DNA of 64,000 nucleotides from Bacillota bacterium (lineage in GTDB: Bacteria; Bacillota; Limnochordia; Darwinibacteriales; Darwinibacteriaceae). The notes beneath the pieces were generated by a model. That model had not been told where the DNA came from. It saw only the letters and a list, made by a program, of their open reading frames with translations, and searched no databases. Position 1 is the first letter of the stretch, and every line of letters begins with the position of its first letter. Shown in pieces: positions 52,350 to 57,466 of the stretch. Position numbers and translations under genes: made by a program. The DNA lies in assembly GCA_012837925.1 (NCBI GenBank), contig DUQE01000049.1, positions 13,997 to 77,996 of the forward strand, given 5' to 3'.

Positions 52350-53399
52350 ATGTCCGTCGAAAGGAGCGTTCGCGTGAGTTCCCGAGAATTGCAGACCTTG
52401 ATTCACGACGCAGGGTTTGACGCCTTTGCCATCATGCCTGCCCAACCAACTGCGTCCATGCTTCCCATTCTCAGGGAAGCACAAGAAGAAGATCGCTACC
52501 CAGACTTTGTTGATACCGATATTGTCAAGCGGGTGGATCCGAGAAATCTGCAAGAAAGTGCCAAAAGCATACTTTCCTTAGCCATTTCGTATTATTCCGG
52601 AGATCCGAGCCCCACGCCCGTCCTCCACGGAACGATCTCGCGTTCTGCCTGGGGGCTTGATTATCACCGCGTTCTTGGCGAGCGTATGGACCAAGTCATC
52701 GACGGGTTGAAGCAATACCATGGTGCCAAAGAATGCACCAAAGCGGTTGATACAACCTTTCTCATCGATCGTGCTCTAGCGATAGAATCTGGTCTGGGCT
52801 ACCCGGGGAGCAATTGCTCGGTATACGTTCCGCCCTATGGGTCCTGGGTTTTCTTAGGCGAAATCCTGGTTGATGTGGATCTGCCCACGACGAACGCGAG
52901 GCCGTCGGAGAACTGGGCCTGCCCCATGGATTGTGATCGTTGCGTACAGGCTTGCCCTACAGGGGCACTTTTTGCACCAGGGAAAATTCGTCCGAAACGT
53001 TGCATTTCTTACCTCACACAAATGTCTGGACCCATTCCCTTAGATCTTCGGGAGAAAATCGGCAGCAAACTGTGGGGTTGTGACATCTGCCAGCAAGTGT
53101 GTCCCATCAATCGCCAGGCGAAGATCACATCCCACGAAGTGTTTCAGCCCACACGGGGTCCCCACATACCTCTGGTCCCACTCTTACGCTTGACAAAAAG
53201 AGAGTTCGTCGACATGTTTGGGCCCACCAGCATGGCCTGGCGTGGGAAAAACGTATTGCAGCGAAATGCCTGTGTTGTTCTAGGTAATCAAAGAAACCCA
53301 GAGGCTTTGCCTATCCTAGAAGAAACAGCCCGGGAACATCCAAGTACCGTCGTACAAGATGCTGCAACCTGGGCTGTAAAAAAGATCAAGTCATGTTAA
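52350..53399 (+). CDS. queG: Epoxyqueuosine reductase QueG
   Basis: Two 4Fe-4S ferredoxin motifs (CDRCVQACPTGAL; CDICQQVCPIN), HEAT-like C-terminus. A GTG about 8 codons in with GAAAGGAG RBS may be the true start. Confidence 0.85.
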   Translation: MSVERSVRVSSRELQTLIHDAGFDAFAIMPAQPTASMLPILREAQEEDRYPDFVDTDIVKRVDPRNLQESAKSILSLAISYYSGDPSPTPVLHGTISRSAWGLDYHRVLGERMDQVIDGLKQYHGAKECTKAVDTTFLIDRALAIESGLGYPGSNCSVYVPPYGSWVFLGEILVDVDLPTTNARPSENWACPMDCDRCVQACPTGALFAPGKIRPKRCISYLTQMSGPIPLDLREKIGSKLWGCDICQQVCPINRQAKITSHEVFQPTRGPHIPLVPLLRLTKREFVDMFGPTSMAWRGKNVLQRNACVVLGNQRNPEALPILEETAREHPSTVVQDAATWAVKKIKSC

Positions 53400-54732
53400 T
53401 CGTATTGTGCCTTGCGTTTTCTAGAGCTTTCTTGAGTCGTTCTCCATAAGGACCATTCACATGTGTTGTAGCCTCTAGTGCTTTTTCCAGGAACGTTACG
53501 GCCTCTTCCCCACCATAACGACTAATCGACACCGCCATCTGTGCCTTTTCCTCGTTTTCTTCAGGATAATGATCGAACATCTCCGTAAGCAAACTCCAGC
53601 GCCTCTTCGTGGGCGGCCCATGGGACAAGAAAAGAGCAAGATAGGGCAAGAGTGGCGAATCACGATTCGCTCGAACAAAACGGCGCATAGCTGGAAGGGC
53701 TTTCCCATCAAACGACTTGAGCAGACTCCAACACTCATAATACAAGGGATCGTCTGCATCAATACTCGCCAGAATCTCCAAAACAACGTCACTCACTTCA
53801 CTCAATCCCCACCGGTTGCAGTATACGAGCAATCGCATCAGAAACCCTTGGTTGAAGTCCTCGTTCACCAAACGTATCTCTAGGATCATGAGTATGAGAG
53901 CCATAGCCTGCTGATCGGGCTCTACATCAATATGCTCAAAACTGGAAAAGAAACTCTCAAAGAAGTAATCATACTCATCCTTCTCAAAGACCGTGTTGAG
54001 GTCCGTATATCCGGAGCCGCCCTGGCGAAAGTTGCGAAAAACACTAAGGTCTGATACGACATTCCCCTTAACCTTCTTGCGCTTTTGCCTCTCGGTGGCA
54101 ATGTCTTCAAGTGGGTAGTTGTAGTATGGAGTGACTCGGAAGTTGTTCACCAGGGTCTGCAGTCCCTGTAAGACCACTTGGATGCGGGGGGGACTGATCT
54201 TGAGCCACATGGGGCGCAGCCGTGCACCCCTAAGCATCCGAGCTCCTGCACGGCCCAAGATGAGGGTCAACTCTTCGTCCAGATTTGGACCTTCTGCCCG
54301 CAAGACTTGATGAGCCTGGCGTATGATGCTATCAAGATCTTCATTATCAGGAACATTGGAGCAATAATACTGCATCATCTGCTTGTAGACGGGCATGCGC
54401 AGGCGAATCTGCAAGCTGTTTTCGTGCATAAAGTGATCAACCACGTACTGAATGTCCAAGGGAAACTGGTACTTATTCAAATCCGCGATGAGCCCTTCTA
54501 CCAGTCGATCCAGTTCGGTATTGGTTCGTTGCAGTTCACGCTTACCCTTCAGCGCAGCACTCAGTAGCGCTACTACGGCTAGAAGTTCAAGTGAGGCGCT
54601 GTAAGCGGCCAGCATCAATTCTCTCTCGTAGAAAAACATACTCTCTTTGATTTCCAGGCAGGACGAAACAAACCCATCTACTGTGGTGATCTCCTGTATT
54701 TCTTCGACAAGCTCTTTATAGTCTCTCAACAA
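53386..54732 (-). CDS. Hypothetical alpha-helical protein (~448 aa), translationally coupled to rnhA
   Basis: No catalytic motifs recognised. Predicted mostly helical. TTG start immediately after the rnhA TAG, with GGAGAGGTAGGGGTG purine-rich RBS overlapping the rnhA stop. Confidence 0.5.
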   Translation of the reverse strand: MLRDYKELVEEIQEITTVDGFVSSCLEIKESMFFYERELMLAAYSASLELLAVVALLSAALKGKRELQRTNTELDRLVEGLIADLNKYQFPLDIQYVVDHFMHENSLQIRLRMPVYKQMMQYYCSNVPDNEDLDSIIRQAHQVLRAEGPNLDEELTLILGRAGARMLRGARLRPMWLKISPPRIQVVLQGLQTLVNNFRVTPYYNYPLEDIATERQKRKKVKGNVVSDLSVFRNFRQGGSGYTDLNTVFEKDEYDYFFESFFSSFEHIDVEPDQQAMALILMILEIRLVNEDFNQGFLMRLLVYCNRWGLSEVSDVVLEILASIDADDPLYYECWSLLKSFDGKALPAMRRFVRANRDSPLLPYLALFLSHGPPTKRRWSLLTEMFDHYPEENEEKAQMAVSISRYGGEEAVTFLEKALEATTHVNGPYGERLKKALENARHNTINMT

Positions 54733-54742
54733 TGCGGCACCC

Positions 54743-55192
54743 CTACCTCTCCGCTTCAATGGCGCCACGTGCTAACGCGTCGCAACGATTGTTAAAGGTA
54801 TTATCACTGTGACCCTTCACTTTAATCCACTCGATATCATGGTGATGGCTCAAAGTGATGAGCTGACGCCATAAATCTGCATTACTGACGGGCTGTTTCT
54901 TGGCGTTGAGCCAGCCGTTTTTTTGCCAATTCTCAATCCATCCTTGTGTAAAAGCATTAATCAAGTACGCACTATCAGAATATAGCTTCACCCTACATGG
55001 CTTTTTCAGACCCTCGAGTCCCTTGATCGCTGCCAGAAGCTCCATGCGTTGGTTGGTGGTTTCGGCCGCAAATCCCGATAGTTCCTTCTGATGAGGCCCG
55101 TGAATAAGTATGGTTCCCCAACCTCCCGGTCCTGGATTACCGCTACATGCCCCGTCTGTGTATATTTCTACTTGTGGTTTCAGGTCGGTCAT
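54743..55192 (-). CDS. rnhA: Ribonuclease HI
   Basis: IYTDGACSGNPGPGGWG...ELLAAIKGL...VKGHSD, RNase H catalytic DEDD residues. Confidence 0.9.
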   Translation of the reverse strand: MTDLKPQVEIYTDGACSGNPGPGGWGTILIHGPHQKELSGFAAETTNQRMELLAAIKGLEGLKKPCRVKLYSDSAYLINAFTQGWIENWQKNGWLNAKKQPVSNADLWRQLITLSHHHDIEWIKVKGHSDNTFNNRCDALARGAIEAER

Positions 55193-55232
55193 CCTCCTTC
55201 ACGCTCGAAACTCGCTTGACACCCGTCTCTAC

Positions 55233-55261
55233 TGGCAAACTCGGATCGAAAGTGTTACAAT
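55233..55261 (+). promoter_or_regulatory. Candidate promoter (extended -10) for the zinc-ribbon membrane protein gene
   Basis: TGGCAA, 17 nt, TGtTACAAT. Confidence 0.35.
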
Positions 55262-55308
55262 ATCAATAATACCATACTATACGTTTTTTTGTATTTGGAG
55301 AGAGAACA

Positions 55309-56067
55309 ATGACGGGAAATACCGAAAAAATCACAAAGGGCGAGGACTATCTCGGACGCAGCTGCGTTGTATGTAAAAGGGAGTTTCAAGCCGAAGACGA
55401 AGTGGTAGCTTGTCCTCGATGCCATAGCGTGCATCACGCCGAGTGCTGGAAAGAGAAAGGCGGATGCGGCAAGACAGGCTGTCCCCAAGTCGCACAAACG
55501 ATCAGAGGTGAACGGCCCCAAGGCGACGGCCCACCCCCGCCTGTATCGAAGAAGGTGATCGCTGGCGGCATCCTGGCCTCCGTGGTTGTGATCCTCTTGA
55601 TGGTCTTCTGGCCCAAACCACCCGATCCTGCCATGGGGCGCACTAAGATTGTCTTTCTGGGTCCAGCGTACCAGGAGCTTTCGGACGTTGTGACCGAACT
55701 CGTCGAAGGATATAATGCTACAAGCGAAGATGTCTACATTGACTTGCAGCTTCTTCCTCCCCAAGGAATGGACACAAAACTCGTTGTTCTTATTGCTGCC
55801 AATCAAGCGCCTGATGTTCTTGCTATCGATGATGATCGTTTCGCGCAGTTTTCTTCTGAGGGAGCCCTGTTGCCTGTGGGTGTGAACGATGAAGGTGAGC
55901 CCATTTACGGCATTCAACATCCAGCCCAGTTGACCCAGTTAGTCGTGTGGGGGGGCACAGAAAATCCCGCGGAGTCCTTAGAAGTATTGCACTTTCTTGC
56001 CAAGAACATTCCACCCGCTGATTTGGACCTGCTGAGGGAGTCGCAGACTAGCACATTTCCTTTCTAA
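55309..56067 (+). CDS. Zinc-ribbon / single-TM / solute-binding-protein-like ectodomain protein (hypothetical)
   Basis: N-terminal CxxC...CxxC-H-xx-H...C...C cluster (CVVCKREF...CPRCHSVHHAECW...CGKTGC), a Pro-rich linker, TM helix (VIAGGILASVVVILLMVFW), then ~150 aa resembling the N- and C-terminal segments of a family-1 SBP. Confidence 0.5.
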   Translation: MTGNTEKITKGEDYLGRSCVVCKREFQAEDEVVACPRCHSVHHAECWKEKGGCGKTGCPQVAQTIRGERPQGDGPPPPVSKKVIAGGILASVVVILLMVFWPKPPDPAMGRTKIVFLGPAYQELSDVVTELVEGYNATSEDVYIDLQLLPPQGMDTKLVVLIAANQAPDVLAIDDDRFAQFSSEGALLPVGVNDEGEPIYGIQHPAQLTQLVVWGGTENPAESLEVLHFLAKNIPPADLDLLRESQTSTFPF

Positions 56068-56070
56068 TTC

Positions 56071-56098
56071 AAAAAGGGCCCGAGGGCCCTTTTGTTTG
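56071..56098. terminator. Bidirectional rho-independent terminator
   Basis: AAAAAGGGCC-cgag-GGCCCTTTTTGTTTG, a palindromic GC stem flanked by A-run and T-run. Serves convergent genes on both strands. Confidence 0.6.
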
Positions 56099-56105
56099 TC
56101 TTGAC

Positions 56106-56678
56106 CTAAAATCCAACCTGTGGCACTTCTTGAGCACTCGAAGATGCTTCAAAGAAGGGTTTGGGCTGTCGGCCCATAATGCCTGCTAACAAGTTGGTGG
56201 GGAACTGACGAATCGTAGTATTCCAGGTTTGAACCGACTCGTTGAAGCGCATCCGTTCGGTAGCGATGCGATTCTCCGTACCGGCCAGTTCGTCTTGGAG
56301 CCGGATGAAACTCGTATCAGCCTTGAGTTGAGGATAGGCTTCACTGATAGCCAACAGGCGTCCAAGTGCTGAGTCTAAGCCCCTGTTTGCTTCCATCTGG
56401 GCCTCCGGAGTCGTGGCTCCCAGGAGACGAGATCGGGCATCTGCCACATCAGCAAAAACTTGCTCTTCGTGACTTGCATACCCTTTAACCGTATTCACCA
56501 AGTTAGGGATCAAGTCAGCTCTTCTCTGGAGCTGATTCTCCACCTGGGCCCAGCGACCGTCAACGGTCTCTTCAAGCGCAACGAGCTGATTGTAACGACC
56601 AACAACTCCTGATCCTAAAGCGATTACAACTACCAGAATAACAATGAGAACTATGGTACCTTTTTTCATCCACTTCAC
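56106..56678 (-). CDS. lemA: LemA family membrane protein
   Basis: N-terminal TM plus LemA helical domain. Partnered with the TPM gene. Confidence 0.85.
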   Translation of the reverse strand: MKWMKKGTIVLIVILVVVIALGSGVVGRYNQLVALEETVDGRWAQVENQLQRRADLIPNLVNTVKGYASHEEQVFADVADARSRLLGATTPEAQMEANRGLDSALGRLLAISEAYPQLKADTSFIRLQDELAGTENRIATERMRFNESVQTWNTTIRQFPTNLLAGIMGRQPKPFFEASSSAQEVPQVGF

Positions 56679-56701
56679 TCTCCCTCTTCATGATTTCTCG
56701 A

Positions 56702-57466
56702 TTAGAATCGTCTTCCTGCTCCGCCGCCTCCACTGCGTCCTCCACCAAAGCCGCCGGAAGGTCGTGAGCCACCACCAAAGCTTCCGCCTCCAAATCCACC
56801 GCCTCGAGGCATTCGTGGCACGATTACGGTTCTACCTGAACCTCCCCCACCGCCAAAGCCTCCGCTTCCGCCCGGTGGGTAACGTCTTCCACGGCGCATA
56901 AGCATGAGTATCAATACAAAAATGACAAACGAAACAAACCACCCAGAACTGCCCTCTCGTTCCTCAACAATCTCAAACTCTTCACCAGCCAGGATATTCG
57001 CATAGGCTAGAGCCATAGCCGAAAGCCCTGCGCCATAATCCTTTTTCTTAAAGTGGGGAATTCCTTCTTGATCAATGACGGCACCGACGAGTCCATCCGG
57101 CAATACACCTTCCAGACCGTATCCTGGTTCCACTTCGATGGCTCCTTCAGCCACCGCCAACAGCATCAAAAGACCGCTATCATCGGGCCCACCTACACCC
57201 CACTCGTTGAAGAGCGCTGTGGTGTACTCCTTAGGATCCATAGGCGCCGTTGTGGATATGGTGACGACCGCCAGACCAATACCCTGTTCACTCCATAACT
57301 TCTCTCCAAGGAGCTGCATTTCGGCCTTGCTTTTTTGGTCCAAAACATTGGCAAAGTCATTTACAAAACCCTGTTTATCGGGAAAAGCCGCCATGACAAC
57401 ATTACTCATAACAACAACTAAGACAAGAACAATACTAGTTCGAATAATCTTCTTATGCATTCGCAT
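56702..57466 (-). CDS. TPM-domain protein with C-terminal TM and Gly-rich tail
   Basis: Signal/TM, TPM (YgcG-like) domain, TM, then GGFGGG low-complexity tail. Confidence 0.8.
   Translation of the reverse strand: MRMHKKIIRTSIVLVLVVVMSNVVMAAFPDKQGFVNDFANVLDQKSKAEMQLLGEKLWSEQGIGLAVVTISTTAPMDPKEYTTALFNEWGVGGPDDSGLLMLLAVAEGAIEVEPGYGLEGVLPDGLVGAVIDQEGIPHFKKKDYGAGLSAMALAYANILAGEEFEIVEEREGSSGWFVSFVIFVLILMLMRRGRRYPPGGSGGFGGGGGSGRTVIVPRMPRGGGFGGGSFGGGSRPSGGFGGGRSGGGGAGRRF

Follow-up and report, generated by a model that had tools for sequence, protein, structure and literature searches.

We identified a protein of 252 residues that joins a bacterial RING finger, a single predicted transmembrane (TM) helix and what appears to be half of a family-1 solute-binding protein (SBP), encoded in a 64-kb window (the whole stretch of DNA that was analyzed). 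It belongs to a conserved family known to date solely from uncultured bacteria of the Limnochordia type, and in most other branches of that family its gene is the first of a putative two-gene operon with a GT4 glycosyltransferase. We tentatively propose that the protein spans the membrane to assist or regulate the synthesis of envelope glycolipids or glycans. To our knowledge, hardly any bacterial RING finger has a known function, and a conserved, constrained RING family with an operon partner offers a concrete, testable hypothesis for these domains. A sequence-only reading had singled the gene out as an orphan with anti-sigma-like topology; the observation itself is confirmed by our analysis, and the interpretation is partly supported.

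The gene and its expression signals

The open reading frame list confirms the coding region and its ATG start; the features that we assigned are given in Table 1. The promoter-like site, which is a pattern match only, agrees with the extended -10 promoter proposed earlier and lies in the 116-nt divergent region separating rnhA from the RING/half-SBP gene. On the other side, the gene converges with a LemA gene, and between the two is the bidirectional terminator that had been predicted: a hairpin (AAAAGGGCCC-GAGG-GGCCCTTTT, positions 56072-56093) with a fold of -15.2 kcal/mol, preceded by an A-tract and followed by a T-tract. Hairpins with differing stem sequences occur at the equivalent position in about 20 related loci, so the terminator in the window is more than a chance match. 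In the window genome, the gene appears to stand alone between the promoter-like site and the terminator.

Table 1. Positions of the RING/half-SBP gene, its signals and the segments of its product in the window.
Feature	Position	Strand	Basis or detail
Promoter-like site: CTGGCA (-35), 18-nt spacer, TG-n-TACAAT (extended -10)	55232..55261	+	Consensus scan and sequence
Shine-Dalgarno GGAGAG, 6 nt upstream of ATG	55297..55302	+	Direct sequence reading
CDS, 252 aa: RING finger, one TM helix, single-lobe SBP domain	55309..56067	+	ORF list; full-length homologues in 57 clusters
Prok-RING_1 finger, residues 13-60, cytoplasmic	55345..55488	+	Ligands C19, C22, C35, C38, H43, C46, C53, C58; invariant W47
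Cytoplasmic linker, residues 61-80, clade-invariant GDGPPPP motif	55489..55548	+	Alignment; low pLDDT
Single predicted TM helix, residues 81-100	55549..55608	+	AF2 helix, pLDDT 93-95
Periplasmic juxtamembrane stalk WPKPPDPAMGR, residues 101-111	55609..55641	+	Alignment
Periplasmic single-lobe domain from family-1 (CUT1-type) SBP, residues 112-235	55642..56013	+	
C-terminal helix and flexible tail, residues 236-252	56014..56064	+	Alignments; pLDDT 49-74
Bidirectional intrinsic-terminator-like hairpin, 9-bp stem, GAGG loop, between the RING/half-SBP gene and LemA	56072..56103	.	Scan and fold

The cytoplasmic RING finger

The Cys/His cluster noticed at the N-terminus is real, and it is a Prok-RING_1 RING finger rather than the zinc ribbon or zf-HC2-type anti-sigma zinc domain that had been suggested. 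Residues 13-55 match the Pfam model Prok-RING_1 (PF14446) at 46.6 bits (E = 3.3e-12; cutoff 29.1), and 56 of the 57 homologue clusters carry a precomputed match to the same model. The ligands follow a C4HC3 cross-brace pattern, C19-x2-C22-x12-C35-x2-C38-x4-H43-x2-C46-x6-C53-x4-C58, and would be expected to bind two zinc ions. All eight are invariant in an alignment of 40 close relatives; in 33 sequences that include distant relatives, they and W47 are invariant or at least 90% conserved. When the domain is modeled alone, it shows the binuclear treble-clef RING fold and matches the eukaryotic RING-H2 domains of RNF165, ZNRF1, RNF38, and RNF13.

The helix at residues 81-100 comes after the finger, in keeping with the TM domain by which Prok-RING family 1 is characterized in PMC4029887, which cites Burroughs 2011. 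The same paper states that not all prokaryotic RINGs are ubiquitin-related, and a review describes a longer spacing of the last ligand pair, here C-x4-C, as characteristic of RINGs from prokaryotes (PMC11354881). As a module, Prok-RING_1 is promiscuous and occurs in fusions with ankyrin, TPR, WD40, SH3, trypsin-like, and other domains. Its combination with an SBP-derived domain was absent from the ten other Prok-RING_1 proteins that we looked at, and no relevant account of a RING joined to a solute-binding protein came up in a literature search whose coverage stopped short of the original 2011 family description, which may include it.

A half solute-binding protein held at the membrane

The Pro-rich linker and single TM helix of the sequence-only reading are both found in the alignment and the AlphaFold2 model. 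The helix separates the zinc domain, predicted to be in the cytoplasm, from the C-terminal domain on the far side of the membrane, as had been proposed, with the orientation taken from the nature of the two domains; like all structural statements here, this topology is a prediction from AlphaFold models. Cultured Limnochordia have an outer membrane visible by electron microscopy (PMC11456536), so the ectodomain side would be the periplasm. The linker has a mean pairwise identity of 68%, and sequence conservation is poor in the hydrophobic TM helix (35% identity). The stalk behind it is the most conserved segment in the clade, with a mean pairwise identity of 85% and with P102, P104, D106, P107, A108, and R111 invariant in the alignment. 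These 11 residues are predicted to form a rigid, Pro-rich stalk holding the periplasmic domain near the membrane. At the other end of the chain, the tail finishes in an aromatic motif, FPF in the window protein and FGF in most relatives.

The ectodomain scores 28.4 bits against SBP_bac_1 (PF01547; cutoff 26), with only positions 9-82 of the 307 in the profile covered. A profile of the family aligns with SBP residues from about 10 to 125 (E = 7.5e-16) and weakly with residues from about 285 to 325. The full-protein model has a pLDDT of 87.6, mostly 94-98 in the ectodomain, and its top fold matches are family-1 SBPs only, with 125-135 of their approximately 390 residues aligned, which bears out the SBP-like fold anticipated for this region. 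It forms a single beta-alpha-beta lobe, compact and confidently modeled, rather than the hinged two-lobe Venus flytrap. On this modeling, only the first lobe of a sugar-type SBP of family 1 is left in the ectodomain, which lacks the hinge, the second lobe, and the C-terminus of such proteins. The earlier description of an SBP with its middle missing was therefore right about the resemblance and the lost middle, but the last 80 or so SBP residues are gone as well. Without its second lobe, hinge, and C-terminus, the protein would have no means of clamping a solute in Venus-flytrap fashion or of delivering it to an ABC transporter.

Neither a signal peptide nor a lipobox was found at the N-terminus; the RING occupies the first 60 residues, and the sole hydrophobic segment is at 81-100. 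The ectodomain residues conserved across the whole family (P150, K157, L158, A164, P168, and D169) fall within the segment that aligns to SBPs generally. They look like fold determinants rather than ligand contacts, and they point to no particular ligand. An apparently self-folding single SBP lobe bears on the evolution of the two-lobe periplasmic binding protein (PBP) fold and on the design of minimal binding domains.

A conserved and constrained family

Homologues fall into 57 clusters of close proteins and, at 50% identity, about 25 more distant ones, with the same layout and nearly all 240-296 aa long. All organism-labeled members come from Limnochordia/Bacillota metagenome-assembled genomes. 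The dN/dS ratio is about 0.1 per domain (0.09-0.19), with about 0.12 for the ectodomain and 0.35 for the tail, estimates made at a dS of 0.9-1.3, near saturation. Full-length SBPs, which would have marked the gene as a pseudogene, were found neither among the close homologues nor in the best 150 profile matches.

Linkage to a GT4 glycosyltransferase

Related loci were found with a profile built from an alignment of closer relatives. A GT4 gene lies on the same strand, 3' of the RING/half-SBP gene, in L001/L023, L020, L026, L029, L030, L031, L032, L036, L050, L051, and L052. In most of these loci, the two genes are separated by 10-22 nt or overlap by 4-11 nt, and the spacers inspected hold little besides a Shine-Dalgarno sequence. 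The exceptions are L036, with a gap of 267 nt, and L032, where the GT4 call overlaps the RING gene by 200 nt because the ORF caller uses the first in-frame start. Identity to the window protein is 35-57% among the GT4-linked relatives, whose glycosyltransferases are orthologous, with 48-83% identity. The linked loci are spread over several deep branches of a neighbor-joining, midpoint-rooted tree, including the sister of the window's subclade, and a two-gene operon is the likely ancestral state on these sequence comparisons.

The GT4 is predicted to be soluble and resembles alpha-monoglucosyl-diacylglycerol synthase. Its best NCBIfam match is NF049988 (MGlcDAG synthase), at about 200 bits over positions 1-389 of 398, well below the equivalog cutoff of 400 bits, and the MshA and BshA models also match. 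In other Firmicutes, genes for unrelated membrane proteins share transcripts with those for glycolipid glycosyltransferases, as in ypfP-ltaA and lafA-lafB-lafC (PMC3089915).

The subclade of the window appears to have lost this linkage and to carry a structurally conserved terminator instead. A GT4 gene is absent from the corresponding position in the subclade and from the entire 64-kb window, and no second copy of a GT4, RING, or half-SBP gene was found in the window. An adjacent GT4 is also missing in the most remote relatives, L045, L048, L049, and L047. Since the window's subclade has no adjacent GT4, the protein must have a function that survives without that neighboring gene. The description of the gene as a monocistronic orphan accordingly fits the window's subclade but fails for most other branches, where it has a putative co-transcribed partner.

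The GT4 is the sole recurrent, tightly coupled neighbor. Much of the flanking synteny is made up of the housekeeping genes rnhA, LemA, TPM, and Tex, and may be inherited gene order. LemA/TPM and RNase H were considered as partners and rejected: they are syntenic throughout the close clade but missing beside the remote relatives, and being of housekeeping type, they are treated as inherited gene order. A conserved divergent partner was rejected as well; the 460-aa neighbor in the window and the 426-aa HEAT-repeat protein in the same position in the remote relatives have no homology (BLAST; hhalign probability 0.4%). The earlier statement that no ECF sigma factor or ABC partner adjoins the gene extends beyond the window, with neither a sigma factor gene nor an ABC transporter gene (BPD_transp_1, ABC_tran) adjacent in it or in any examined related locus. 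As a separate observation, one of three copies of the secreted neighbor of about 200 aa in the remote group has a LolA_like match, which at 22.8 bits falls below the cutoff of 30.

Proposed function and alternatives

As an accessory of glycolipid or glycan synthesis, the protein would work from both sides of the membrane. The RING finger is proposed to be a cytoplasmic docking or control module for the GT4 or another cytoplasmic partner, and the membrane-proximal half-SBP may bind, at the surface of the membrane, to a periplasmic partner or to a carbohydrate, either a glycan or a sugar head group. Binding outside and docking inside could then couple the two membrane faces. In the window lineage, the GT4 gene would have left its position, and the RING/half-SBP gene would now be transcribed alone. 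A lineage-specific envelope factor of this kind could bear on how the envelope is built in Limnochordia, which are deep-branching diderm Firmicutes. A more specific version, which is speculative and rather unlikely as it stands, is a new coupling device in diderm Firmicutes, in which the stalk-held half-SBP reads outer-leaflet glycolipid heads or periplasmic glycan and the RING docks and tunes the GT4 that makes them. If this is true, bacterial RING fingers would gain a defined role apart from ubiquitin, and there would be a natural case of a PBP half-domain working alone.

Another possibility, somewhat on the unlikely side, is a generic transmembrane sensor or adaptor with no tie to the GT4, where the half-SBP binds a periplasmic ligand or protein and the RING recruits or releases a cytoplasmic partner. 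The topology suits such a role and both domains are under constraint, while the promiscuous fusions of Prok-RING_1 are as expected of a protein-interaction unit. Retention of the protein without an adjacent GT4 in the window's subclade and the remote relatives also favors it, and the earlier suggestion of a sensor using a degenerate SBP fold is compatible with the evidence. However, no conserved cytoplasmic partner gene was found, the GT4 being the only neighbor that recurs in tight coupling, and a single SBP lobe is without the closing mechanism of two-lobe SBP sensor domains.

The ancestry of the ectodomain might instead suggest a regulator or helper of sugar ABC (CUT1) transporters, carrying no solute itself, in which the tethered first lobe docks on the permease or pairs with a free SBP. 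Many sugar ABC importers are encoded in Limnochordia genomes (PMC11456536), and CUT1 sugar SBPs are the nearest relatives of the ectodomain in both sequence and fold. We nonetheless consider this role improbable, with no permease or ATPase gene adjacent in the examined loci, no lipobox or signal peptide, and family-wide conserved residues that resemble fold determinants, with no evident docking or ligand residues among them. Public annotations call family members either "RING finger protein" or "extracellular solute-binding protein", and the latter name, given by NCBI to several members, might be counted for this role, but it is misleading because the protein is unable to act as a transport SBP.

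It is very improbable that the protein is an E3-like ligase, a membrane RING serving a cryptic prokaryotic system of ubiquitin-like conjugation and analogous to the eukaryotic PA-TM-RING ligases. Active RING E3s carry a basic "linchpin" residue past the last Cys, a eukaryotic criterion that may not transfer to bacteria; in its place, the window protein has P59-Q60 directly after C58, with Q60 at least 90% conserved. Some prokaryotic RINGs do occur with E1, E2, Ubl, and JAB genes, according to PMC7159879, which cites Burroughs 2011, but none of these genes was found within 7-10 kb in the window or any examined related locus. Members of family 1 are, moreover, not all ubiquitin-related (PMC4029887).

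Still less probable is a single-pass anti-sigma factor, the first interpretation placed on the gene, which would use its zinc domain to sequester an ECF sigma factor and its ectodomain as a sugar sensor. Sugar-sensing anti-sigma factors of the RsgI type exist, and the window protein resembles anti-sigma factors in its topology (N-in, C-out, a single TM helix) and in having a zinc-binding domain in the cytoplasm. Yet the domain is a RING: neither zf-HC2 (PF13490) nor RsgI_N gives a match even at E <= 1, nor does the sequence contain the H-x3-C-x2-C motif, H42-x3-C46 being followed by E49 instead of Cys. No sigma gene is adjacent in the examined loci, and a scan of 10 of the other window ORFs of 154-254 aa found no sigma factor. 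Finally, the truncated SBP homology alone might point to the remains of a full-length SBP, decaying as a fusion or a pseudogene, but this is ruled out for practical purposes by the short architecture kept in the 57 close and roughly 25 distant clusters, the low dN/dS (about 0.1 per domain, and similar in the ectodomain), the compact and confident model, and the lack of any full-length SBP in the best 150 profile matches.

Comparison with known systems

Parts of this architecture can be recognized in several known systems. Anti-sigma factors, both the RsrA/RslA-like zf-HC2 proteins and RsgI, have the same N-in/C-out bitopic layout, and the window protein differs from them in having a RING rather than zf-HC2, no partner sigma gene, and no anti-sigma HMM match. 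The eukaryotic PA-TM-RING E3 ligases RNF13 and GRAIL/RNF128 follow the same logic, linking a binding domain outside the cytoplasm to a RING inside it through one TM helix. Here, by comparison, the chain order is reversed, with the RING N-terminal, the outside domain is a different one, there is no evident E2/Ubl system, and no basic residue follows the last Cys.

A membrane protein is likewise paired with a glycolipid-synthase-like glycosyltransferase in LtaA/YpfP of S. aureus and in LafC with LafA/LafB of L. monocytogenes (PMC3089915). The window protein is unrelated in sequence and fold both to LafC and to LtaA, which is an MFS transporter; one TM helix would be insufficient for a flippase, and the linkage to the glycosyltransferase is missing in the window genome.

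The closest likenesses are domain by domain. With the CUT1 (SBP_bac_1) proteins 4ovj, AbnE (6rjy), and Lmo0181 (5f7v), the ectodomain has in common the motifs QKL..AA..aPD and YGxP and a helix ..HP..A.E.L. Unlike them, it has neither hinge nor lobe 2 (about 160 residues), it is missing the last 80 or so residues, and it has no signal peptide or lipobox and no adjoining transporter genes, being anchored by an N-terminal TM helix behind the RING. With other Prok-RING_1 proteins, such as the 61-aa RBAM_017410 of Bacillus amyloliquefaciens FZB42, it shares a C4HC3 finger beside a TM helix, a last ligand pair spaced C-x4-C, and a neighborhood free of ubiquitin-system genes; what sets it apart from them is the additional periplasmic domain of about 150 aa derived from an SBP.

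Domain architecture

The zinc domain of the RING-halfSBP protein is a RING finger. Residues 13-55 match the Pfam model Prok-RING_1 (PF14446) at 46.6 bits, above its cutoff of 29.1, with PHD and RING as weaker matches. A sequence-only reading had proposed a zinc ribbon here in a protein of anti-sigma-like topology; no zf-HC2 match was found in the 252-aa protein at E <= 1. The zinc ligands follow a C4HC3 pattern (C19-x2-C22-x12-C35-x2-C38-x4-H43-x2-C46-x6-C53-x4-C58); a review gives this order, with a longer last spacing, as usual for prokaryotic RINGs (PMC11354881). In an alignment of 40 close relatives the eight ligands and W47 never vary, and adding relatives down to 22% identity leaves them invariant or almost so. 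Residues 1-72 modelled alone gave the expected hairpin-plus-helix core (pLDDT 77.8), and every testable feature of Prok-RING_1 members was found. According to a passage in PMC4029887 that cites Burroughs et al. 2011, a transmembrane domain is characteristic of this family and a link to ubiquitin is not obligatory.

The ectodomain is lobe 1 of a two-lobe solute-binding protein (SBP), joined at the normal crossing point into lobe 2. SBP_bac_1 scores just over its cutoff, and its match is confined to profile positions 9-82 of 307. Against family-1 sugar SBPs in the PDB, the family profile reaches E-values down to 7.5e-16, the alignment spanning SBP residues ~10-125 and, with weak scores, ~285-325. 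The SBP likeness noticed earlier thus holds, but the protein was taken to lack only the SBP middle, and ~80 C-terminal residues have no counterpart either, besides the ~160 middle ones. In the full AlphaFold model (mean pLDDT 87.6, ectodomain mostly 94-98), this region forms one beta-alpha-beta-alpha-beta-alpha unit with two short strands and a helix, and the top 50 Foldseek matches are all family-1 SBPs. Transport SBPs need the second lobe and hinge to close on their ligand. Both are absent here, from which we infer that the protein cannot close on a ligand in that manner; three of four features of transport SBPs are lacking. Public names for the family vary among "extracellular solute-binding protein", "RING finger protein" and "hypothetical protein" (homologs P0005, P0012, P0067, P0079 and others), and the first claims more than one lobe can do.

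Two Pro-rich segments, GDGPPPP and WPKPPDPAxGR, flank the single transmembrane helix. They are the best-conserved stretches in the close clade (the nearer relatives with conserved gene order), exceeding the domains with up to 85% pairwise identity, and were not found in the alignment of distant relatives. Our guesses at their role are a rigid spacer, a partner-binding site or a translation-pausing PPP run. The protein ends in a disordered tail with an aromatic terminus, FPF here, P-x-P-x-F-G-F in most relatives (C-termini in related loci L001-L036) and, among distant ones, PGxF or PxxW; the tail is missing from one subclade. It may act as a tag for recognition, perhaps by a PDZ-type domain, or cap the exposed face of the lobe.

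Coordinates of features in the window and in related loci (L handles)
Feature	Position	Strand or placement	Basis
CDS, 252 aa, ATG start	55309-56067	+	ORF list
Shine-Dalgarno GGAGAG	6 nt 5' of CDS ATG	+	read from sequence
Promoter-like site, CTGGCA, 18-nt spacer, TG-n-TACAAT	55232-55261	+	pattern match
GDGPPPP	55522-55542 (residues 72-78)	+	alignment
WPKPPDPAxGR	55609-55641 (residues 101-111)	+	alignment
Disordered C-terminal tail	56014-56064 (residues 236-252)		
Hairpin, 9-bp GC-rich stem flanked by A-tract and T-tract	56072-56093	between gene and convergent LemA	scan and fold
460-aa protein	53386-54768	-	
LemA and TPM-domain genes	56106-57466	-	
221-aa antisense ORF	55255-55920	-	
~200-aa divergent protein, remote group	L045:7192-7803, L048:5211-5819, L049:6188-6778	-	remote group
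Example of intergenic region with hairpin	L007:10767-10830	between gene and LemA	

Family and conservation

A word-indexed search recovered 57 clusters, almost all of 252-257 aa, with identities of 47-69%. An exhaustive profile search gave 3,383 matches, the majority through the RING part alone, and ~25 more 50%-identity clusters (240-314 aa) covering RING, helix and ectodomain. Members with a source name come from Limnochordia, Firmicutes or Bacillota MAGs, many members having no organism label, and the 32 loci that match fully or almost fully all lie in uncultured Bacillota/Limnochordia-type MAGs, to which the family is so far confined. Pairwise dN/dS, a rough estimate with dS close to saturation, is 0.09-0.19 in every segment from the RING through linker, helix and stalk to the ectodomain; the tail reaches 0.35. 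With these clusters all keeping the short architecture under such constraint, and no full-length SBP in the top 150 profile matches, we rejected the fusion relic or pseudogene suggested earlier, whose probability is negligible.

Gene and neighborhood

The ORF and promoter-like site described from sequence are present, the latter within a 116-nt divergent region common to rnhA and the RING-halfSBP gene. A hairpin starts 5 nt past the stop codon; taken alone, its gain over shuffled sequence is modest (z = -1.9). About 20 orthologous loci have a hairpin at the equivalent position with different stem sequences, and this preservation of the fold but not of its sequence favors a genuine bidirectional terminator, as had been predicted. 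Strong stems (-15 to -40 kcal/mol), varying in sequence by locus, lie between the gene and LemA in L004-L024. The antisense ORF inside the gene was listed mechanically and has no sign of being real.

Gene order in the close clade is near-invariant: DEAD helicase, SelO, NifU, QueG, a 460-aa protein (-), RNase H (-), the RING-halfSBP gene (+), LemA (-), TPM (-), flavin reductase, YigZ and Tex. Because these flanking genes are mostly housekeeping and are not found beside the gene in remote relatives, we read the synteny as inherited gene order. It has been rearranged at least once, since rnhA lies downstream in one deep subclade (L033, L035, L037), where the 460-aa protein is missing. That protein, which keeps its place upstream of rnhA in most loci of the close clade, has no Pfam match even at E <= 1 and evolves fast (35-81% identity). 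At its 3' end its gene shares 14 nt with the QueG 3' end, and at its 5' end 26 nt with the end of rnhA; the latter overlap, on the same strand, suggests that it is probably co-transcribed with rnhA. LemA and TPM form a tight pair (23-nt gap) downstream of the RING-halfSBP gene and convergent with it, and the C-terminal tail of the TPM protein is long and Gly-rich (GGFGGGGG... repeats). A ~200-aa protein whose N-terminus resembles a signal peptide is divergent from the RING-halfSBP gene in the remote group, where it lies beside a 426-aa protein with HEAT repeats; in one copy of the three, a LolA_like match stays under the threshold (22.8 bits, cutoff 30). The HEAT-repeat protein has no homology to the 460-aa protein at the same position (hhalign probability 0.4%). 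The ten ORFs of 154-254 aa scanned elsewhere in the window are all unrelated enzymes.

A recurrent glycosyltransferase neighbor

The gene stands alone in the window, as the sequence-only reading held, but in many relatives it has a companion. Downstream of it, on its own strand, lies the gene of a ~390-aa glycosyltransferase (GT4) in L001/L023, L020, L026, L029, L030, L031, L032, L036, L050, L051 and L052. Spacing is mostly a 10-22 nt gap or 4-11 nt overlap, with spacers, where read, scarcely more than a Shine-Dalgarno; the gap widens to 267 nt in L036, and the 200-nt overlap in L032 is an artefact of ORF start choice. The linked RING proteins share 35-57% identity with the window protein, and the GT4s are mutually orthologous over their full length (48-83% identity). 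In a neighbour-joining tree these loci fall on several deep branches, L020 being sister to the window's subclade. No GT4 lies within the 64-kb window, and this clue is absent from its own genome stretch. These data are most simply read as an ancestral operon of two genes; the window's lineage would then have lost or relocated the GT4, leaving the terminator hairpin 3' of the RING-halfSBP gene. The best NCBIfam match of GT4, alpha-monoglucosyl-diacylglycerol synthase (~200 bits, positions 1-389 of 398), is below the 400-bit cutoff and is followed by MshA, BshA and lipoteichoic-acid glycolipid-anchor enzymes, so the profiles point to a glycolipid-synthase-like enzyme of unproven substrate.

Possible functions

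The combination of RING, helix and single SBP lobe is unusual and well supported. It is absent among ten other Prok-RING_1 architectures compared, and we found no description of it in the literature searched; the 2011 survey by Burroughs et al., outside that search, may list such proteins. We infer a cytoplasmic RING and a periplasmic half-SBP, given the many cysteines of the zinc domain, the descent of the ectodomain from SBPs and the diderm envelope that Limnochordia have (PMC11456536). We tentatively propose, as a testable partner hypothesis that is possible rather than probable, that the RING would dock or control GT4 or some other partner in the cytoplasm, while the ectodomain, 11 rigid residues from the bilayer, would bind a sugar head group, glycan or partner at the membrane surface.

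A sensor or adaptor with no particular partner is somewhat less likely. A role with CUT1 transporters is unlikely, with no ABC transporter component adjacent in the window or any related locus examined. The same loci have no adjacent E1, E2, Ubl or JAB gene, which makes an E3-like ligase quite improbable, and no adjacent sigma factor; the missing sigma and ABC neighbors had been noted from the window. The anti-sigma factor suggested by the topology is still harder to credit, with a RING in place of zf-HC2 and two of three anti-sigma features lacking.

Pairing of the RING-halfSBP protein with GT4 would have parallels in other Firmicutes, where unrelated membrane proteins, with roles that are only partly understood, share transcripts with glycolipid synthases, as in ypfP-ltaA and lafA-lafB-lafC (PMC3089915).
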